Below, in pieces: positions 2,277 through 62,420 of a DNA stretch of 64,000 bases (the stretch's first letter is position 1; each line of letters opens with the position of its first letter). Source of the stretch: a bacterium (GTDB lineage: Bacteria > Patescibacteriota > Minisyncoccia > Phycocordibacterales > UBA2100); contig JAEUQT010000003.1 of assembly GCA_016789445.1 (NCBI GenBank), positions 82,600 to 146,599 on the forward strand. The letters run 5' to 3'. Below the pieces are notes generated by a model. The model saw nothing but the letters and a program-made list of their open reading frames with translations, searched no databases and had not been told where the DNA came from. Position numbers and translations under genes: made by a program.

Positions 2277-2299
2277 ATCACCTTCAAAAGGTGATACAT

Positions 2300-2384
2300 G
2301 CGTCCGTGGCGAAACTAGGTAAACGCAGTGGATTTGTAATCCACCATCCCCTCGGATTTGCGGGTTCAAGTCCCGTCGGACGCA
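2300..2384 (+). tRNA. class II tRNA (long variable arm); anticodon loop TTTGTAA = anticodon UGU as folded; Leu/Tyr-like body
   Basis: Manual cloverleaf. Acceptor GCGTCCG/CGGACGC. D arm GCG-AAACTAGGTAAA-CGC. Anticodon stem GTGGA/TCCAC. 15-nt variable arm (ATCC-CCTC-GGAT). T arm GCGGG-TTCAAGT-CCCGT. Discriminator A. No encoded CCA. Confidence 0.85.
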
Positions 2385-2583
2385 AATATCAACTCTCAAA
2401 GACCATAAACAACAGCCAGTTATCTGACTGTCGCGCACGACTGCTAGTAATTGAACGATCCCGCGGTTCCCCCTTTCAAATCGTTTCCGATTACCACCAT
2501 TGTAGACGAAGGTGGTACATGCGGTAAATAGAGTTATCCACGCGGATTCGGACTATACAACAATCTTCATGCGATTGGAATTA

Positions 2584-2607: not shown

Positions 2608-3867
2608 CTAGACGATGCTGGTCGCTTGTCGTCGCTTACGATGCCACGTAATCGCGAAACGATGCGCCTCAGAATTGGCGAGAAGGATGTCACGTTCAAA
2701 CGATTGTATGGCATTGAGATTGCCGATGAGACGTTCCGGACGATGGCGTTCGTTCTTTACGACACCCACCAGCGGAATGGTGATACCCGCTTTGGAGAGC
2801 ACTTTCTTGGCGGCATTCATCTGTGCCGTCGAGCCATCGACGACGATGACGCGCGGATACTGCCATTCAGGATGAAGTAATCGGCGCGACAAGACTTCAG
2901 TCAGAGCTCCCGGATCGTTGTTGGTGAATCCCTTCACTTTGAATTTGCGATAGGCGCTTTTGAGCGGTTCCCCTTCTTCGACGGCGACCATGACGCCGAC
3001 CGTTTCGGTGCCGGAGGTGTGGGCGACGTCGAATGCTTCGATACGTGCGCCGCGTTGCGGGATGTTGCCGCCGCTGGAGATGCGGGAATCATCCTTGATG
3101 AGCGCGATGTCGTTGATGTGGGTCAGCGCGCCGACCTGACGGCGTGCGCGTTCGGCATCTTCGAATCGTTCTTCTTTGGCAGCCACTTTCATTTCCTTCT
3201 CGAGCTCCTTCACGAGCGTTTTCTTCTTGCCGCTGAAAAGAAGGCAGATGTTGCGGATAGTGATTGCGTATTCCTGCGCATCGGTTTCTCCGGTGCAGAC
3301 GCCAGGGCACAGCCCTATTTGCCTGTTAAAACAGGGACGGCAATTGGCTTTGCCGGACTTGAGTTGTTCCGAGCATGGGGTGCACTTGTCATCGCGATAC
3401 GGGAAGATGCGACGCACGAGCTTCATCGCTTCGCGCAGCGCGAGGCCTTGCGGAAACGGGCCGAAAAGCTGCTTCACCTTCCCTCCCTGCCAGTTGGTGA
3501 AGTATTCACGACCACGCACGACGAGCAGGCGCGGGAATGCTTCTTCGGTCACCACGAGGTAGTTGAAGCTGCGGTTGTTCTTGTCGATGATGTTGTAGGG
3601 CGGCGTGTGCTTCTTGATGAGATTCGCTTCGAGGATCATCGCTTCGAGTACGGAATCCGCTTCTTCCCACGTGATGGTGTCGGCTTCCTGCACCATGGCC
3701 GCGATGGCGGTGGAACGCGATTCCTGAAGGCCGGCATTGAAATAGCTGCGCACGCGGTCGCGCAGCACCGTTGCCTTGCCGATATACAAAATCTTCCCGC
3801 CCTTCTGGAAGCGGTAGATGCCCGGTGTTTCCGGAAGGTCGAATTTTTGGAGGTCATCTTTCTGCAT
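2608..3867 (-). CDS. uvrC: excinuclease ABC subunit C (short form, 419 aa)
   Basis: N-terminal GIY-YIG (GIYRF...ILYIGKA), a UVR-like helical segment, and an RNase H-like endonuclease domain (EAFDVAHTSG ... EAHRFAITWHRKRR). No C-terminal helix-hairpin-helix pair. Confidence 0.9.
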   Translation of the reverse strand: MQKDDLQKFDLPETPGIYRFQKGGKILYIGKATVLRDRVRSYFNAGLQESRSTAIAAMVQEADTITWEEADSVLEAMILEANLIKKHTPPYNIIDKNNRSFNYLVVTEEAFPRLLVVRGREYFTNWQGGKVKQLFGPFPQGLALREAMKLVRRIFPYRDDKCTPCSEQLKSGKANCRPCFNRQIGLCPGVCTGETDAQEYAITIRNICLLFSGKKKTLVKELEKEMKVAAKEERFEDAERARRQVGALTHINDIALIKDDSRISSGGNIPQRGARIEAFDVAHTSGTETVGVMVAVEEGEPLKSAYRKFKVKGFTNNDPGALTEVLSRRLLHPEWQYPRVIVVDGSTAQMNAAKKVLSKAGITIPLVGVVKNERHRPERLIGNLNAIQSFERDILLANSEAHRFAITWHRKRRQATSIV

Positions 3868-9345: not shown

Positions 9346-11367
9346 TTATTTTTTACGCGTCTCCAGTTTCGATATTTCGTCACGGAGGAGTGCGGCAGTC
9401 TCAAAATCCAAGCGATCGGCTGCTTCGTGCATTTCTATACGCTTCTGCTTGATGAGTTTTTTGATGTCTCCCCCGGCCGCTGCCATGTCGCTCTCGGCGA
9501 GCGTCGCAACGGTACGATCACGCATCTTCTGGATGTCCCCGATGATGTCGTGGATCTTCTTGGCGACCGTCTTCGGCGTGATGCCGTGTTTTTTATTGTA
9601 CGCGATCTGGATTTCGCGACGACGGTTCGTCTCCCCTATCGCGCGCTCCATGGAGCCGGTCTGCATATCAGCATAGAGAAGGACGCGGCCGAGGACGTTG
9701 CGGGCGGCACGACCGATGGTCTGGATGAGTGACGTTTCCGAACGGAGGAAGCCTTCCTTATCGGCATCGAGGATGCCGACGAGTTCGACTTCAGGAAGAT
9801 CGAGTCCCTCGCGAAGCAGGTTCACGCCGACGAGGACATCGAACGCGCCTTTCCGGAAATCGGTGAGCGTCTCGATGCGATCGATGGTCTTCACATCGGA
9901 GTGGATGTAGCGCGTCTTGATGTCCTTCTCCTTCAGGAATTCCGTGAGATCTTCGGCCATCTTCTTGGTAAGGACGGTGACCATGGAGCGGCCGCCGCGC
10001 TTGGTGACGACTTCCGCTTCTTTGATGAAATCGCGTACCTGACCTTCGTAGCCGTCTTTCGCCACGATCGGGCGCACTTCGATCTCCGGATCGATGAGAC
10101 CGGTCGGGCGGATGATCATCTCGACCGGCTTCCCGCCTTCCTTGATCTCGAATTCACCTGGTGTCGCGGAGGTATAGATGGTCTGCCCTGTTTCTTTGCG
10201 GAACTCATCGAATTTCAACGGACGGTTATCGACCGCGCTGGGGAGGCGGAAGCCGTGCTCGATGAGCGTGAGCTTACGTGCACGATCACCTGCATACATC
10301 GCTCCCAACTGCGGCACGGTGACGTGGCTTTCATCGATGATGGTGAGGTAATCCGGCGTACCGTCGGCTTTGTGCGGGAAATACGAAAGGAGGGAATACG
10401 ATGGCTCGCCCGGTGCGCGGCGATCGAAGTGGCGCGAATAGTTTTCGATTCCCGAACAGAAACCGAACTCCTTGATCATCGCGAGATCCTGACGCGTGCG
10501 ACGCTTCAAACGTTCCGCCTCGAGGATCTTCCCTTCCTGATCGAGCTCCTTGAGGCGCTCTTTCAATTCGTGCTCGATATCCTTCACCGCCGCATCCATA
10601 ACATCCTTCGGCGTGACGTACTGTTTCGCCGGAAAGAGGAAAAGCTCAGGCAGTTCTTCGGTAATCGCGCGGGTGATGTGGTCCATCACCTCGATTTTCG
10701 AGACCTTTCCGCCCGCAAGATCGATGCGGTAGATGATGCGTTCCCCTGCGGGCATGAATTCGACGTAGGAACCGAGTGCACGGAAGGTCCCTGGGGAGAG
10801 ATCGCCCGTGGTGCGTTCGAAATACATTGCGATGAGTTTGCGGGTGAGATGGGCGCGCGTCATCGCTTCGCCTTTCTCCAATTTCACGATGTACTTCGCG
10901 TATTCCTGCGGATTACCGAGACCGTAGATGCACGAGACGGACGCCACGATGATGACGTCTTTACGCGTCAGGAGCGCTTGCGTCGCCGCATGGCGCAGAC
11001 GCTCGATGTCTTCGTTGATCATCGCCTCCTTCTCGATATAGGTGTCGGTGACCGGTACGTACGCTTCCGGCTGGTAGTAGTCGTAGTAGGAGACGAAGTA
11101 GTGGACCGCCGCGTCCGGGAAGAATTCGCGGTACTCGGCGGCGAGCTGCGCGGCGAGCGTCTTGTTGTGGGCGATGACCAGTGTGGCTTTTCCGTGCTTC
11201 GCGATGACGTTCGCCATCGTGTAGGTCTTTCCGGAACCGGTGACACCGAGGAGCGTCTGATCACGCTTTCCCTCCTGAAGCCCTTTCATCATGGCTGAAA
11301 TAGCCTGCGGCTGGTCGCCGGAGGGTTCGTAGTCGCTCGTGAGGGTGAACGGAGATTGATTTTTCAC
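9346..11367 (-). CDS. uvrB: excinuclease ABC subunit B
   Basis: 673 aa. Helicase motifs ([12 protein letters not shown]), a beta-hairpin region and a C-terminal UVR domain ([12 protein letters not shown]). Confidence 0.95.
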
Positions 11368-11414
11368 AGGTACATGGTATTATTTTTCGAGCTATTCTGC
11401 AAACGGAGGGACAC

Positions 11415-11621
11415 GTGACGACATTCATGCAGGAGCTTCGTAAGAACCAGAAGAAATTCGGGAAACGACTCAGTGTCGGCGAACTGCAGATGCGCATCCA
11501 GTCAGAGGAGAAATTCCGCGAGGATGACCCTGCAGAAGCCGCGGCCCAGCAGCGACTCATCGAGTCACTCAAAGCCCAGCGCGACAAGCGCTTGAAACGA
11601 CTATTCAACGGCAGCCGCTAG
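11415..11621 (+). CDS. hypothetical small protein (68 aa, GTG start)
   Basis: GGAGGG Shine-Dalgarno sequence; charged helical sequence; a terminator overlaps its stop. Confidence 0.5.
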   Translation: MTTFMQELRKNQKKFGKRLSVGELQMRIQSEEKFREDDPAEAAAQQRLIESLKAQRDKRLKRLFNGSR

Positions 11622-11638
11622 GCTGCCGTTTCTTTTTT
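11610..11638 (+). terminator. intrinsic terminator
   Basis: GGCAGCC-GCTA-GGCTGCC followed by GTTTCTTTTTT. Confidence 0.7.
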
Positions 11639-12884
11639 AATCGAGCACCAAGACGGCGCTCTGGCGCTTCCCTCGCTTCAATATCGCGAGATTGTTCTGG
11701 AAATCCGATTCTTGGAGGACACGCGCGACATCGGTCACCTTTTCATCGCCGAGGGAGATGGCTCCGTCTTCGATGAATTGACGGGCCTCACGCTTCGAGG
11801 CCGCAAGATTGGCTGCGATCAGCGCATCAACGACCGGAAGACCGAGCTGGATGCCGGCATTCGGCGCTTCCTGCGCGAGGAGTTGTCTCGCATCGCGCGA
11901 GACTTCTGCGAGGGTTTTCTCTCCGAAGAGGACTGCCGAGACGTTTTCTGCATTCTCTGCTGCCTCGGCGCCATGCACGATCGTGGTGACGGCGCGTGCG
12001 AGCTCCTTCTGCGCGAGACGCGAGCCCGGCTCCCCTTTGTGGGCATTCATGATGCTCTCCACTTCGTGGAAATGCAGGAGCGTGAGCTTGAGGAGAAGCT
12101 CCTCGACCGCTTCGTCGTCGACATTGAGGAAGAACTGGTAGAAGGCATAGGGGGAGGTCTTTTTCGGATCGAGCCAGATCGCGCCCTGTTCGCTCTTGCC
12201 GAACTTCTTACCGGTGGATTTATTCACGATGAGCGGCCACGTAAGCGCATGGACTTCCTTCTCGCTCCTGCGGCGGATGAATTCGACGCCCGCGAGAAGA
12301 TTGGACCACTGATCGGAGCCGCCGACCTGCAGATCGACGCCGTAGGTGTCGTTGAGATGGAAATAATCGTAGCCCTGCAACAAGGAGTAGCTGAATTCCG
12401 TGAACGAGATCGGGGATTCGGCATCAAGACGGTTCTTCACGATATCCTTCTTGATCATCGCATTCACCGTGAAGTGTTTGCCGACATCGCGGAGGAATTC
12501 GAGGAGCTTCAGTTTCGAGAGCCACTCGGCGTTGTTCACTTCGATGAAATCCGAGGAGCCGAAGACCTGACGGATCTGCTTCGCGACCGCCTTCGTGTTG
12601 TGTTCGATCGTCGCTTCGTCGAGAAGATTGCGCTCGGCGCTCTTTCCTCCCGGATCGCCGATCATGCCGGTGCCACCGCCGGTAAGGATGACGATGCGGT
12701 GTCCTGCTTCGAGGAACCGACGAAGGACGATGAGCCCCATCAGGTTACCGACATGCAAGGAGTCCGCACTCGGATCGATGCCGAGGTAGAGCGTGCGCTT
12801 CTCACCGTCGGTGATCTCTTCGAGGGTTTCAGACGAATGCTGGTGGACATAGCCACGCTGGCGCAGGAGTTCTGAAAGCTTCAT
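11637..12884 (-). CDS. tyrS: tyrosine--tRNA ligase
   Basis: 415 aa. HIGH-type motif (LHVGNL), KFGKS (KMSKS-type), and a C-terminal S4-like domain. Confidence 0.95.
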   Translation of the reverse strand: MKLSELLRQRGYVHQHSSETLEEITDGEKRTLYLGIDPSADSLHVGNLMGLIVLRRFLEAGHRIVILTGGGTGMIGDPGGKSAERNLLDEATIEHNTKAVAKQIRQVFGSSDFIEVNNAEWLSKLKLLEFLRDVGKHFTVNAMIKKDIVKNRLDAESPISFTEFSYSLLQGYDYFHLNDTYGVDLQVGGSDQWSNLLAGVEFIRRRSEKEVHALTWPLIVNKSTGKKFGKSEQGAIWLDPKKTSPYAFYQFFLNVDDEAVEELLLKLTLLHFHEVESIMNAHKGEPGSRLAQKELARAVTTIVHGAEAAENAENVSAVLFGEKTLAEVSRDARQLLAQEAPNAGIQLGLPVVDALIAANLAASKREARQFIEDGAISLGDEKVTDVARVLQESDFQNNLAILKRGKRQSAVLVLD

Positions 12885-13024
12885 CCCATTAGAAATAGAA
12901 CACGGACTACAAAGTTCCGCACTCTACTTCATTACGGCATATAAAACCGACCTGTATGAGAAGTTCAGATTTCGCGCGTCCGCGATTTCTAACGGGATAC
13001 ATGCAGCAGAATATAGCACGGATT

Positions 13025-13053
13025 CAAAAAGCGGGTGTCCGGTAGGACACCCG
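13025..13053 (-). terminator. intrinsic terminator/attenuator-like hairpin upstream of tyrS
   Basis: GGGTGTCC-GGTA-GGACACCC. On the minus strand it is followed by GCTTTTTG. Confidence 0.65.
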
Positions 13054-13141
13054 AGGCTGCATTCGCGGATACGGGAGATGGGCAGGGCGCACCTCTGTTC
13101 CGTGTTCATTGCATCATGCGGCCAGCCGGTGTGGGTGGGAT

Positions 13142-13172
13142 GAAAAGAAAAGGCCTCGCTGACGCGAGGCCT
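13142..13172 (-). terminator. intrinsic terminator
   Basis: AGGCCTCGC-TGAC-GCGAGGCCT. On the minus strand it is followed by TTTCTTTTC. Confidence 0.65.
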
Positions 13173-13278
13173 GTAAGGTGCGAATGCGGCGAATGCCTCC
13201 ATAGTGGTGGCAGTTGACTTCAGAGACAGTCCCCCGATTCGTCCCGTGAATATACCACAGATTCATGATGTGTCCATG

Positions 13279-13303
13279 AAAAAGGGCCATCGGAGGATGG
13301 CCC
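13279..13303 (-). terminator. intrinsic terminator
   Basis: GGGCCATC-GGAG-GATGGCCC. On the minus strand it is followed by TTTTT. Confidence 0.65.
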
Positions 13304-13395
13304 AAGTCACGTGGCTGTGCACTTGCAAACGCAGCGCCGTTTCCGAACTTCGGAGAAGCGCAACTACATACACTGTAGCAAGCCCCGCTAATGCG

Positions 13396-13788
13396 TCAAA
13401 TGCGGCCGTCGCGGATATTTTCGCGATGCCTTACTTCGTGCTCATCGAGGCCCATGTAGTGCCCGACTTCATGCCAGATTGTTTCCGCGACCACCTGCGC
13501 TACTGAGAGCTCATCTTCTTGAGCAGCATGCTCGATGGGCAGCTGGTAGAGCGTGATGGTATCCGGCATGGTGATCCCGACGCCGTAGTGATCGCCGCGC
13601 GCGGTAAGCGGGATGCCTTGGTAGTAGCCGAGGAGCGTTTCGTCTTCTTCGAGACCTTCGCGCACTCTCACTTCCTCAGACGGTTCATCTTCGATGAGAA
13701 TGGCGACGTTCTTGATCTTCGCGCGCACCCATTCCGGCAGCTTCTCGTAGCCTTCTTCGATCAGCTTCTCGAATTCCTCCCGTGACAT
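13396..13788 (-). CDS. small zinc metallopeptidase-family protein (130 aa)
   Basis: HExxH motif (WHEVGHYMG) in a short acidic protein, resembling the minimal zincin family. Confidence 0.7.
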   Translation of the reverse strand: MSREEFEKLIEEGYEKLPEWVRAKIKNVAILIEDEPSEEVRVREGLEEDETLLGYYQGIPLTARGDHYGVGITMPDTITLYQLPIEHAAQEDELSVAQVVAETIWHEVGHYMGLDEHEVRHRENIRDGRI

Positions 13789-15254: not shown

Positions 15255-15280
15255 AGCGGCAGTATACCGCGAAACGACGC

Positions 15281-16741
15281 CTATTCCGACTTCGGGCGAA
15301 GGAGCGGGAAGATCTGGGATTCGTGGGCGGGGCGATTCTCGAGAAACGCGAATAATCTCTCCGAGACGCCGAAGCCGAAGGCCGGCGGCATGCCGTATTC
15401 CATCGCTTTCACGTAATCCTCGTCGAGGCGCTGCGCTTCGTCATCGCCTGCATCGCGGAGTTGTTGTTGTTCTTCAAAGCGTGCGCGCTGATCCTGCGGG
15501 TCGTTGAGTTCGCTGAAGCCCTTGCCGACTTCGGAGCCGGCGATAAGAACCTGGAATCGTTCGACGACATTCGGATTCGTCTTCGAGCGTTTCGCGAGCG
15601 GTTCGAGATAGACCGGAACACCGACGAGGAATGCCGGGCCTGAAATCTTCTTGCGGAGCTGCTTCCAGAGATTATCGATGGCGCGTGCTTTGTTGGGCGA
15701 ATCGCCGAGGTCCACTTTCGCGTCGCGTGCGGCCTGGATGGCCTCCTCTTCGGTGCAGCTGATCGGATTCACGCCGAATGCCTTCTCGATCTCCTCGCAG
15801 AAATCGACGAGCGGCCATTCTTCAGCAAAATCGACGGTGTGCTCCCCTATTTCGAACGTGTATTTCGCATAGACCGCATTCACGATGTGACGATAGAGAT
15901 CCTTCGTGAACTCCATCCCCTTTTTCATGTCGCTGTAGGCCTCGTACGTCTCGAGCTGGACGTAATCCTGCAGGTGTTCGCGTGACTGGCCTTCGTTGCG
16001 GAAGATGCGGCCGATCTCGAAGACCTTCGGGAACCCCGCGACGAGAAGACGCTTCTGCCACAATTCCAGCGAGATACGGAGGTACACATCCATATCCAGC
16101 GAGTTGTGCTTCGTGATGAACGGACGCGCATCGGCGCCGCCGGGGGAATTCTCAAGGACCGGCGTCTCGACTTCGACGAAACCTTTCAGCGTGAGGAATT
16201 CGCGGATCGATCGCCAGAATGCGGCGCGGCGCTCGAACATGGCGCGGACATCTTCGTTGAGGAGGATGTCGAGGTATCGCTGGCGCAATATCGCTTCCTC
16301 GTCTTTGAGGCCGAACCACTGATCGGGGATCGGCATGAGGCTCTTCGCGAGCATCTTCCATTCCTTTACCTTGAGCGATTGGTGACCGCGCTGCGTCTTG
16401 AACGCGATGCCGCTTACCTGTATGAAATCACCGATATCCGCGGCCGAGGCGAAAAGATCGAACAGCGCATCATCGAATTCCCCTTTCTGGAAGACGGCCT
16501 GCGCCTTGCCGGTACCGTCGAAGAGATCGACGAACATGATGCCGCCTTGGCCGCGCTTGGACATGACACGGCCCGCGAGGGTGACGGGTGTCGCGGATGC
16601 TTCGAGATCATCGAAACGTAGGAGAAAATCTGCAGCGTCGGTGTCTTTTTCGGTTTGTGCCGGATACGGCTCCATTCCTGCGAGCTGGAGGAGCTCCAAT
16701 TTCTTCAACCGATCCTGCTTGAGGTCGTCGCCGCTTGCCAT
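15281..16741 (-). CDS. lysS: lysine--tRNA ligase (class II)
   Basis: 486 aa. OB-fold N-domain and class II motifs (FRNEG, GGADARPF, GFGVSERL). Confidence 0.95.
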   Translation of the reverse strand: MASGDDLKQDRLKKLELLQLAGMEPYPAQTEKDTDAADFLLRFDDLEASATPVTLAGRVMSKRGQGGIMFVDLFDGTGKAQAVFQKGEFDDALFDLFASAADIGDFIQVSGIAFKTQRGHQSLKVKEWKMLAKSLMPIPDQWFGLKDEEAILRQRYLDILLNEDVRAMFERRAAFWRSIREFLTLKGFVEVETPVLENSPGGADARPFITKHNSLDMDVYLRISLELWQKRLLVAGFPKVFEIGRIFRNEGQSREHLQDYVQLETYEAYSDMKKGMEFTKDLYRHIVNAVYAKYTFEIGEHTVDFAEEWPLVDFCEEIEKAFGVNPISCTEEEAIQAARDAKVDLGDSPNKARAIDNLWKQLRKKISGPAFLVGVPVYLEPLAKRSKTNPNVVERFQVLIAGSEVGKGFSELNDPQDQRARFEEQQQLRDAGDDEAQRLDEDYVKAMEYGMPPAFGFGVSERLFAFLENRPAHESQIFPLLRPKSE

Positions 16742-16759
16742 GAGTGAGAATATAGCACG

Positions 16760-23638: not shown

Positions 23639-23690
23639 GCCGGAAGTATAGCAAAAAACCCCGCTCGACGCGGGGTTTTCATCATGGATG

Positions 23691-32601: not shown

Positions 32602-32628
32602 TGCGGGAGTATATCAAACGTGAACGGA

Positions 32629-34432: not shown

Positions 34433-34624
34433 ATGGAAAAGATACAGGAATCGGCATTAGTCGGCGTGAAGATCTATCCTCACGCCACCTATATCGGCAT
34501 CTATCGTCGCGAGACCTATGATGACGGCACGATCAGCAGTCTCGAGATGAAAGACAGCAGGGAGCACCGCTGGATCCATCGAGGCAATCCTGAAAAGATA
34601 ATCTCTCGTCTCTCGCGTCGCTGA
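34433..34624 (+). CDS. hypothetical small protein (63 aa from MEKIQ)
   Basis: GAAGGAGG Shine-Dalgarno sequence before the ATG at 34433; own terminator. Confidence 0.5.
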   Translation: MEKIQESALVGVKIYPHATYIGIYRRETYDDGTISSLEMKDSREHRWIHRGNPEKIISRLSRR

Positions 34625-34630
34625 CGCGCT

Positions 34631-34663
34631 GCGGCCTCGCTTTCGCGAGGCCGCTTTTCTTTT
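34631..34663 (+). terminator. intrinsic terminator
   Basis: GCGGCCTCGC-TTTC-GCGAGGCCGC followed by TTTTCTTTT. Confidence 0.75.
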
Positions 34664-34725: not shown

Positions 34726-34923
34726 ATGTTCACGCGTATACGCAATCTCTGGAAGCGCCTCGAAGACTACCGGAATACGCCCCGCACGATCGGATCGGAG
34801 TACACGTCGCACATCCTCGGGGTGAGCGGCAACTTATGGACGGTTGAGTTGTGTCGGGACGGCGTCCCCTACCGTCGGATGCAGGTGCATTCGATCTCGA
34901 ACCTCCTGCGGCGATATGAATGA
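34726..34923 (+). CDS. hypothetical small protein (65 aa from MFTRI)
   Basis: GGAGGAGG Shine-Dalgarno sequence before the ATG at 34726; own terminator. Confidence 0.5.
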   Translation: MFTRIRNLWKRLEDYRNTPRTIGSEYTSHILGVSGNLWTVELCRDGVPYRRMQVHSISNLLRRYE

Positions 34924-34931
34924 AAGACCGA

Positions 34932-34961
34932 GCGGCGGCCCTCCGGGCCGCCGCCTTTTTT
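34932..34961 (+). terminator. intrinsic terminator
   Basis: GCGGCGGCCC-TCC-GGGCCGCCGC followed by CTTTTTT. Confidence 0.75.
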
Positions 34962-39017: not shown

Positions 39018-39047
39018 GAAAAAAGCGGGCATCCGGAGGATGCCCGC
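39018..39047 (-). terminator. intrinsic terminator
   Basis: GCGGGCATCC-GGA-GGATGCCCGC with TTTTTT on the minus strand. Confidence 0.75.
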
Positions 39048-39053
39048 AGGTAT

Positions 39054-39428
39054 TCATTCTTCTTCAACGCCGCAGATCGCGATGTACTCCTTGAGGATGG
39101 CGCGCATCTCGGTGGCCGGATAGCCGCCGACCTTGGTCGATCCATCGTCGCTTTTGCAGACGCGCGCTGCCCTGTCGTTCTTCGCGATGATGCCTTCGAC
39201 CAGCGTCAGTCGTTTGCGGGCGATCGGCAGCATCTTCGTGCATTCGACGAAGTAGTTGAAGTCGAAGCTCGTCGCATCCGCGCCGAGCACCGTCTTCACT
39301 TCCGCGGCAAACCAGTGCCGCTCTTGGTCCTGCGCATCATGTACGCGCGCGATCGCATCCGTACAATCGTCGGCCCATGCGGTCGTGATCATGAGCGAGA
39401 CCGCCGCCGCTACTGCCATGCGAATCAT
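39054..39428 (-). CDS. hypothetical secreted protein (124 aa, 4 Cys)
   Basis: Signal peptide (MIRMAVAAAVSLMITTAWA); ORF track. Confidence 0.55.
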   Translation of the reverse strand: MIRMAVAAAVSLMITTAWADDCTDAIARVHDAQDQERHWFAAEVKTVLGADATSFDFNYFVECTKMLPIARKRLTLVEGIIAKNDRAARVCKSDDGSTKVGGYPATEMRAILKEYIAICGVEEE

Positions 39429-51666: not shown

Positions 51667-51730
51667 ATATGGATTATACGCCTCATATAAAAAACCGCCG
51701 CAGATATTCTCTGCGACGGGGAAAGAGCGG

Positions 51731-52126: not shown

Positions 52127-52654
52127 ATGGGCTGGTTTCCATTATTCCTACGTCGTAGCGCGCTCGGGAGCATCTGCGGACATCCGACGAAGCTCAAAGG
52201 AACGCTCTCGGCATTCGGCGAGACCATCAAGATGAAGATCAATCTGAGGGAGGACGGCTCGACGCCGTACTGCCTCGATTGCCTCGCGAAGATGTCCATC
52301 CGGTGCGGATGGTGCGGCAAGCCGATATTCATCGCCGACGTCGTCACGCTCTACTCGCCGACAACCACCGAGGAGTTCAATGCCCGATGGAAGGAGGATC
52401 TTCCCTTCACGCTCGTCGAGGATGCCGCGACCGGATTACGGCTGCCGGAGACGGCCGTCGTGTATCAACCGACACAGGGTCGCACGCGACCAACGATCGT
52501 CGGGTGCGGGCGCACCAGCTGTGCCGAGAGCGGCGCCGATTACGCCGGCACTTGGCTTCCGGGGAAATTCGGCAAGGGATACGCGCAACGTATCCGGACG
52601 CCGTATGAGCAATTGCTCAACGCCGAAGCCGGGACGATCACGAACGTACGATAA
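52127..52654 (+). CDS. hypothetical Cys-rich protein (175 aa)
   Basis: CLDC...CGWCG zinc-ribbon-like pairs; purine-rich Shine-Dalgarno sequence; own terminator. Confidence 0.55.
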   Translation: MGWFPLFLRRSALGSICGHPTKLKGTLSAFGETIKMKINLREDGSTPYCLDCLAKMSIRCGWCGKPIFIADVVTLYSPTTTEEFNARWKEDLPFTLVEDAATGLRLPETAVVYQPTQGRTRPTIVGCGRTSCAESGADYAGTWLPGKFGKGYAQRIRTPYEQLLNAEAGTITNVR

Positions 52655-52659
52655 GGCAT

Positions 52660-52692
52660 GCGGCCGCGCTCCAGCGCGGCCGCTTCTTTTTT
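52660..52692 (+). terminator. intrinsic terminator
   Basis: GCGGCCGCGC-TCCA-GCGCGGCCGC followed by TTCTTTTTT. Confidence 0.75.
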
Positions 52693-62321: not shown

Positions 62322-62420
62322 GACCTGAGCATATACAAAGATGCCGTCGAACGCGATGCGAGGCGTTCTTGACGCTCAACCAGGAGAGGCGCATCATTGT
62401 GCCCAGAAAGGCAGGTGCCC

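Follow-up and report, generated by a model that had tools for sequence, protein, structure and literature searches.

Candidate tandem small RNA genes between Zincin_1 and tyrS, and a palindromic insertion in the tyrS start codon, in a Paceibacterota-like genome

The window analysed here is a 64-kb stretch of DNA (64,000 nucleotides, nt; contig JAEUQT010000003.1, positions 82,600 to 146,599) from a Paceibacterota/Kaiserbacteria-like bacterium of the candidate phyla radiation (CPR), whose closest tyrS relatives, at 57-80% identity, are metagenome-assembled Paceibacterota, Kaiserbacteria and 'Patescibacteria' genomes. Its minus strand carries, in this order, lysS (15281-16741), an EamA transporter gene, msrA, the metallopeptidase-family gene Zincin_1, a gap of 511 base pairs (bp; 12885-13395), tyrS and uvrB, and no gene is called in the gap in six public copies of the contig. 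We describe within this gap three units, A, B and C, which we read as candidate small RNA (sRNA) genes and, at the tyrS start codon, a palindromic insertion resembling a miniature inverted-repeat transposable element (MITE).

Three hairpins with T-runs follow one another on the minus strand of the gap; the first-pass annotation of this DNA had pointed them out, and a consensus scan recovered each of them in place. All show the features of intrinsic terminators, namely stems of 8-9 bp with 6-7 G-C pairs, 4-nt loops and a T-run. Under stricter criteria, the window holds 15 terminators on the minus strand and 16 on the plus strand; the Poisson probability of three same-strand terminators within 272 nt is about 5e-5 per given 280-nt span and about 0.01 for the whole window, and a cluster of this kind on one strand is unlikely by chance. 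The scan also detected two promoter-like sites in the gap, both on the minus strand (13399-13372 and 13276-13249). Three promoter-to-terminator units can be delimited (Table 1), the annotation having counted two. Judging from the sequences compared, a stronger argument than this clustering is the conservation of promoters, RNAs and terminators at the syntenic site in relatives. The close relatives (L155-L165; Zincin_1 identity 78-92%) came from a protein search and contig look-ups, and the more distant ones from a metagenome scan. The exact Zincin_1 protein also occurs on several public contigs; the same-strain contigs L081-L086 were left out of the study of covariation, their spacers being identical over the compared length and hence uninformative.

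Unit B opens with the extended -10 element that had been noticed at first pass (TGG-TATATT, 13249-13257). The element is real and pairs with a -35-like hexamer at a distance of 16 nt, and the promoter is nearly invariant in five close relatives (L155-L157, L159, L160). The putative RNA consists of a long, imperfect hairpin whose apical loop of 11 nt, CAACUGCCACC (13216-13206), ends in an invariant GCCACC (13211-13206), and of an ACCUUAC spacer and terminator 2, which come next. The window copy folds with z = -4.25, and independent folds of L155, L159, L163 and L001 return the same hairpin, its 11-nt loop closing with UGCCACC, and after it a short spacer and a terminator. A covariance model of B built from the window clade (R1) matched exclusively at the syntenic site, at E<1e-4 in the window, L155-L159, L163 and L001, and more weakly in L160, L002 and L161. 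In a seven-sequence, model-guided alignment, which superseded a messy first attempt with plain MAFFT and RNAalifold (-4 kcal/mol), 96.1% of the cells are standard pairs and 23 of the 32 pairs have changed on both sides; none of 500 shuffles reached these values, and 3' partners slid out of register pair at 37-47%. The independent single-sequence folds likewise show compensatory changes in the P1 and apical stems of B, and the unit B terminators covary among relatives. The covariation sought by comparing upstream regions, as the annotation had proposed, was found in B; in A it is the promoter, and in C the sequence, that is conserved.

The -35 element of unit A overlaps the Zincin_1 stop codon TGA (13398-13396). 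By eye, the same arrangement, a stop-codon-overlapping TTGAC(G/A) with a -10 box 16-17 nt downstream, was recognised in L001, L002, L003, L088 and L155-L160, so that the layout is seen in at least nine lineages, and L013 has an equivalent promoter, TTGGCG-17-TATAGT. The window copy of A folds with z = -2.6. According to independent folds, the A-type RNAs of relatives (about 80-130 nt) are divergent in sequence and have a common layout, in which one or two hairpins at the 5' end are followed by an unpaired linker and then by a terminator. The linker contains CUCCC-type motifs in most lineages, and the number of CUCC motifs per A-type unit ranges from one to four, the linker holding most of them. 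Dinucleotide shuffles of 14 A homologues contain 11.0 +/- 2.8 CUCC and the real sequences 22, a count that none of 1000 shuffles attained; this enrichment is to be taken as an indication and not as a probability since the homologues are not independent. Terminator 1 had been assigned to the metallopeptidase gene. It probably does end the msrA-Zincin_1 mRNA, but it also ends unit A, which has a promoter of its own.

Unit C is recognised by two conserved stretches, TGcAATGAACACGGAAC (13113-13097), which may hold a weak extended -10 element, and CAUCUCCCGUAUCCGCGAAUGCA (13080-13058). In an alignment of six homologues, the unit with its terminator has a mean column identity of 85%, and strong matches to its model (R2) lie only at the C site, in the window, L156-L158, L160, L161 and L163. 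Model searches of the rest of the window and of 94 sources returned no further copy of B or C; weak matches at 52630-52690, 34570-34661, 39019-39061 and in L006 (6634-6715) look driven by terminators and were rejected. We also treated as chance an 8-nt match between B and C in the window (GCAUUCGC/GCGAAUGC), which by inspection is not conserved in L163.

Table 1. Features of the Zincin_1-tyrS region, in window coordinates
Feature	Position	Strand	Description
Zincin_1 metallopeptidase-family gene	13396..13788	-	130 aa; Pfam PF06262
Unit A promoter	13372..13399	-	-35 TTGACG (13399-13394), 16-nt spacer, extended -10 TGcTACAGT (13380-13372); 9/12 match
Unit A, putative sRNA	~13365-13279	-	~87 nt; 5' stem-loop, linker, terminator 1
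Terminator 1	stem 13303-13284	-	GGGCCATC-CTCC-GATGGCCC+TTTTT; T-run 13283-13279
Unit B promoter	13249..13276	-	-35-like TGGACA (13276-13271), 16-nt spacer, extended -10 TGgTATATT (13257-13249); 10/12 match
Unit B, putative sRNA	~13243-13143	-	~100 nt; long imperfect hairpin 13243-13180, terminator 2 and T-run
Terminator 2	stem 13172-13151	-	AGGCCTCGC-GTCA-GCGAGGCCT+TTTCTTTT
Unit C	13026..13113	-	putative RNA of ~76 nt (~13101-13026), ending at terminator 3
Terminator 3	stem 13053-13032	-	CGGGTGTCC-TACC-GGACACCCG+CTTTTT; T-run 13030-13026
Ancestral leaderless tyrS promoter and old start	13000..13018	-	TGcTATATT (13018-13010), N7, ATG (13002-13000); TGCTATATTCTGCTGCATG
Palindromic MITE-like insertion	12884..12997	-	114 nt; inverted repeat I1
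tyrS	11637..12884	-	415 aa; Pfam tRNA-synt_1b, SYY_C-terminal, S4

An old tyrS start, with its promoter, lies just past terminator 3 in the window, and the 19-nt pattern that the two form is found again at the start of lysS (16757-16739). The old ATG is the tyrS start codon itself in L155 and L159, which read CTGCATGAAGCTT. In L001, L002 and L003, the last terminator is directly followed by TGTGgTATATT, six or seven bases and the tyrS ATG, and the promoter likewise comes after the last terminator in L155, L159, L160, L161, L163, L165, L013, L088, L091 and L094; its form across relatives is TGnTATAnT-N6-8-ATG. Five relatives with no unit at all (L006, L007, L009, L089, L092) have it 18-39 nt past the Zincin_1 stop. 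From this comparison, tyrS appears to be ancestrally leaderless, with its promoter directly after terminator 3, and a promoter in that position suggests that the terminators serve as the ends of sRNA genes and not as attenuators of tyrS. Such starts are frequent: a TAnnnT -10 box stands 5-8 nt ahead of the start codon in 15 of 50 candidate genes in the window (about 30%), compared with 3.7% of all ATGs, and to judge by this box these genes are probably leaderless, while a separate set of genes has strong AGGAGG Shine-Dalgarno (SD) sites. Examples of the leaderless type stand at 16739-16757, 15255-15275, 23639-23660, 32602-32620, 51667-51685 and 62322-62342.

The present tyrS ATG (12884) lies 141 nt beyond the end of terminator 3. 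When the window was aligned with L155, L156, L157 and L159, the stretch from the old ATG to AAGCTT proved to be 118 bases longer in the window, L156 and L157 than in L155 and L159; the element is absent from the tyrS site of L155, L159, L160, L161, L163, L165 and L001-L003. The distance of about 140 nt is thus due to the insertion of a 114-nt element into the start codon, and these alignments indicate that tyrS owes its structured 118-nt leader to a palindromic mobile element that inserted recently. It follows that UAC 'specifier' or tRNA-like features sought in this leader were discarded, the leader being a mobile insertion whose middle differs at lysS and tgt, the two other insertion sites described below.

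The number of units is itself variable. Across relatives, the Zincin_1-tyrS spacer ranges from 18 to 511 nt and contains 0, 1, 2 or 3 units. Downstream of B stands C in most genomes, a different third unit (C') in L155 (~2645-2745) and L159 (~2655-2760), and the tyrS promoter in L001 and L002; the presence of C' at the position of C points to unit replacement at the locus. An 18-nt promoter segment (repeat D1) is moreover duplicated between unit B and tyrS. Taken with the zero to three units and C', this duplication suggests that the locus gains, loses and swaps units. C' itself (...CUGCG..GACGCGGACCUUCGGUAACC.CCUGGGCGCC...) is conserved between L155 and L159 and unrelated to the window's unit C.

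We consider, with a probability of roughly 0.7, that the Zincin_1-tyrS spacer is a locus of three unrelated, tandem, same-strand sRNA genes and not a tyrS attenuator, and that the RNAs act in trans by base pairing. The suggestion made at first pass that the units may be independent sRNAs is thereby supported by promoters, terminators, conservation and synteny. Each of A, B and C would end at its own intrinsic terminator, A and B would each start from a sigma-70-type promoter, and the three terminators would be sRNA 3' ends without a part in tyrS regulation. A and B combine the generic attributes of an sRNA gene, namely their own promoter and terminator, a length of 50-300 nt, absence of coding function and conservation; the promoter of C is uncertain. 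As predicted trans-acting regulators, A-type RNAs would expose anti-SD-like CUCC(C) motifs between the last stem-loop and the terminator and could occlude GGAGG sites, B would present its invariant GCCACC, in the apical loop of a covarying stem, as a seed or a protein-binding loop, and C would offer a conserved unpaired CU-rich/GCGAAUGCA stretch for pairing.

Several observations weigh against this reading. The A-type units are heterogeneous, and the window's own copy is without the linker CUCCC, its motifs being a CUUCUCC within a stem and a CUCC that lies in the loop of the terminator, so that by its sequence it appears to have lost the linker motif. The alignment of B is model-fitted, which favours structure, and covers only about five independent lineages. 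Unit C is conserved without covariation, and its -10 candidate (TGcAATGAA/TGtAATAAA) ends in A, not T, and is unconvincing; C could be made by read-through from B, and its independent transcription is uncertain. Finally, the discrete RNAs are predictions from sequence, and all units occur at one locus only, which leaves room for a cis role tied to the neighbouring genes.

One competing explanation, favoured by the position of well-terminated units on the same strand upstream of an aminoacyl-tRNA synthetase gene and by the well-structured B standing directly upstream of tyrS in L001 and L002, is that the terminators, or at least the third, which the first-pass annotation had likened to a transcription attenuator, control tyrS through a novel leader of non-T-box type sensing tRNA or tyrosine. 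In every relative, however, an extended -10 with the ATG 6-8 nt later lies between the last terminator and tyrS, which implies that the tyrS mRNA starts downstream of the terminators; the same promoter is found in the five relatives devoid of units, no T-box is detected by Rfam even at E<=10, no conserved alternative antiterminator pairing was seen in B by inspection, and the 141-nt distance was produced by insertion. The comparative data have largely refuted attenuation already, and we regard it as very improbable. Only slightly less improbable is a broader cis-regulatory role, in which the units would be orphan riboswitch-like aptamers with terminator platforms tuning read-through along the array into tyrS. 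Covarying B, with its invariant CGGGGGA and GCCACC and a terminator 7 nt further on, does resemble a riboswitch with its terminator, but inspection revealed no conserved antiterminator of the mutually exclusive kind, Rfam returned no riboswitch match, and what follows B differs between genomes.

A more serious objection concerns A alone: B, and perhaps C, might be sRNA genes while A is the structured 3' untranslated region (UTR) and terminator of msrA-Zincin_1, its promoter-like site a by-product of coding. Terminator 1 is indeed the first one past Zincin_1, the TTGAC is partly formed by the last codon and TGA, and the window's A is the copy with no CUCCC in its linker. Yet at least nine lineages have kept the -10 at 16-17 nt past TTGAC(G/A) although the non-coding spacer otherwise diverges, L013 retains its promoter despite a different stop codon, and the zero-unit relatives L006 and L007 do not have the -35/-10 arrangement. 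We consider this reading unlikely, and it is in any case compatible with A as an sRNA gene, given that sRNAs derived from 3' UTRs and transcribed from an internal promoter are a known type. Small proteins, for their part, are scarcely credible. The open reading frame (ORF) listing does include two minus-strand ORFs, 12924-13202 (92 aa) and 13114-13305 (63 aa), but they cross terminators and the recent insertion, have no Pfam match and are not called as genes in the six public copies. The ATGs of both ORFs are lost in close relatives, that of the 92-aa ORF in L155, and indels there are not multiples of three (2 nt). Neither an SD site nor a leaderless promoter precedes them, unlike the true small-protein genes of the window (34434-34626 and 34727-34923), which have GGAGG SDs.

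The three tandem sRNA candidates were also compared with known families. Searched with Rfam at gathering scores, the window yielded a tRNA and nothing else; when the limit was relaxed to E<=10 over 12700-13600, the matches were ar15, SorY and RNase MRP only, all of which we rejected as sub-threshold and either terminator-driven or spurious. The annotation had found no recognisable T-box either, and none appeared at the gathering score or at E<=10. The gap is like a T-box (RF00230) locus in lying upstream of an aminoacyl-tRNA synthetase gene and in having terminator hairpins; it differs by the promoter between terminator and tyrS and by having no T-box sequence or antiterminator. The T-box model comprises a Stem I that bears the specifier loop, the T-box sequence and the antiterminator. 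In a T-box the terminator or sequestrator lies inside the leader, downstream of the gene's promoter, and here it is the tyrS promoter that is downstream of the last terminator.

The ar15 match, the only one that Rfam gives for unit B, deserves a comment. Unit B scores 21.9 bits against alpha-r15/AbcR (RF02345; E = 0.055 in a 901-nt search), mostly on account of its terminator, for a gathering score of 40, and is not a member. AbcR1 and AbcR2 of Sinorhizobium and Agrobacterium, homologous sRNAs of 121 and 114 nt that inhibit translation of ABC-transporter mRNAs, lie in tandem within a single intergenic region, and their promoters have been aligned separately (PMC8844928). Units A-C share the tandem arrangement in one intergenic region but are not homologous to each other and come from a different phylum. 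The alpha-r14/NfeR1 ('CCUCCUCCC') sRNAs are short and carry anti-SD motifs in unpaired regions while their stems diverge, with three hairpins that each hold CCUCCUCCC unpaired (PMC10746234). A-type units resemble them in the enrichment of CUCC(C) in an unpaired linker, but their motif is shorter, usually occurs once or twice, and sits in the pre-terminator linker, not in three hairpin loops; the full 9-mer is not conserved and Rfam gives no match, so that they fall outside this family. By analogy with AbcR1/2 and NfeR1, a base-pairing mode of action is likely (PMC8844928, PMC10746234).

Units A-C would be new sRNA families of an already known kind. We found no description of sRNAs in CPR/Patescibacteria in the literature searched, and judging from it Paceibacterota would have had no defined sRNA family before these. 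In organisms with tiny genomes and few known regulators, the locus provides concrete candidates for post-transcriptional regulation, one of them supported by covariation. It also corrects the attractive idea of a novel tyrS attenuator, tyrS, lysS and many other genes appearing to be leaderless.

The palindromic element at tyrS has 13-nt terminal inverted repeats (TIRs), TCCCGTTAGAAAT (12997-12985) and ATTTCTAATGGGA (12896-12884), complementary at 12 of 13 positions in the window, with an inner 7-bp repeat (CGCGGAC/GTCCGTG), and is flanked by a 4-bp duplication, TGTA (13001-12998) and TGAA (12883-12880). The present tyrS ATG (12884-12882) is made of the last A of the element and the TG of the duplication. 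Folded as RNA, the element gives a single long hairpin (z = -3.9 to -4.9), the base of which terminates on the tyrS AUG. Two further copies were found in two other CPR genomes, in genes confirmed by Pfam: one in the lysS start codon of L009 (1014-1125), with perfect TIRs and a perfect TGAG/TGAG duplication, and one in the tgt start codon of L005 (5517-5636), with a perfect TGAA/TGAA duplication and a TIR variant (GAGAC/GTCTC). The ancestral start of this tgt is GTG, and its new ATG uses the terminal A of the element. Empty sites are seen in L006 for tgt (TATAGTcctgctttGTGAAAAGG), in L091 for lysS (ATGAGCGAA), and in L155 and L159 for tyrS. Over the three copies, the element measures about 112-120 nt, its ends conserved and its middle diverged. 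It thus has the hallmarks of a MITE, namely TIRs and a target-site duplication with empty sites in relatives. The window holds one copy, and about 0.8 Mb of fetched loci contain three independent sites; no exact matches were obtained in viral contigs.

In all three cases, the insertion separates the first from the second nucleotide of a leaderless gene's start codon. On these three sites, we tentatively propose, as a possibility that falls somewhat short of even odds, a CPR mobile family that targets the start codons of leaderless genes, duplicates TGAR and rebuilds the ATG with its terminal A, which would let an essential gene survive the insertion. If this holds, a leaderless gene acquires a portable 5' leader, a long hairpin whose basal helix ends on the start codon; RNase III might then trim the mRNA back to a near-leaderless form, 70S ribosomes might reinitiate past a 5'-terminal mini-ORF, or control might depend on the structure. 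Like the Correia-type MITEs of Neisseria and other palindromic elements, the 114-nt insertion is small and non-coding, has TIRs and a short target-site duplication, is polymorphic between close relatives and would be co-transcribed as a long hairpin beside genes. It differs from them in that its three sites are all in leaderless start codons, with a TGAR duplication and a rebuilt ATG. We found no description of MITEs at the start codons of leaderless genes, or of such a target preference, in the literature searched. Should the pattern generalise, it would represent a new target specificity, that of a palindromic element inserting into the start codons of leaderless genes and regenerating the ATG, and would show, as a natural experiment, how an essential gene without a leader copes with acquiring a structured one.

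Other features considered for the element were abandoned. A conserved upstream ORF is not borne out, the frames being of 31 codons in the window, 39 codons with an ATGA overlap in L009, and GTG-TGA in L005. An outward promoter at the right end is unsupported, its TATTTC box being present in the window and L009 and not in L005. A link to tRNA-related hosts (tyrS, lysS, tgt) is probably a sampling bias, all loci having been fetched around tyrS. Separately, L105 contains a perfect 18-bp palindrome (3689-3727; GCTTGCCCCGTTAGAAAC-GAA-GTTTCTAACGGGGCAAGC) that has CCCGTTAGAAA in common with the element TIR and is perhaps a copy that has collapsed, or else a related hairpin. Among the short same-strain public contigs, L084 stops within the right end of the element, about 20 nt in, L085 just after terminator 3 and L086 just after terminator 2. 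These ends could be assembly breaks at repeats or hairpins, and that of L084 would be explained if the element were multi-copy in that community.

Elsewhere in the window, the two small-protein genes mentioned above, on the plus strand, are SD-led ORFs of about 63 and 65 aa, each with a strong terminator (34631-34654 and 34932-34954); the close terminator pairs at 34.6-34.9 kb were rejected as sRNA candidates, since they flank these genes. Convergent with tyrS, a very basic plus-strand ORF of 64-68 aa (11415/11427-11621; MQELRKNQKKFGKRL...) is equipped with a promoter-like site (11356-11383), a GGAGG site and a terminator (11607-11630) back-to-back with the tyrS end; a gene of 56-71 aa is called at its place in L155-L165, and in the public contig copies the gene called there carries no Pfam assignment. 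Lastly, the anticodon stem and the T arm of a tRNA-Thr (anticodon UGU; 2299-2385, plus strand, 87 nt) appear to be separated by a long extra arm (AUCCCCUCGGAU), an unusual feature for a tRNA-Thr.

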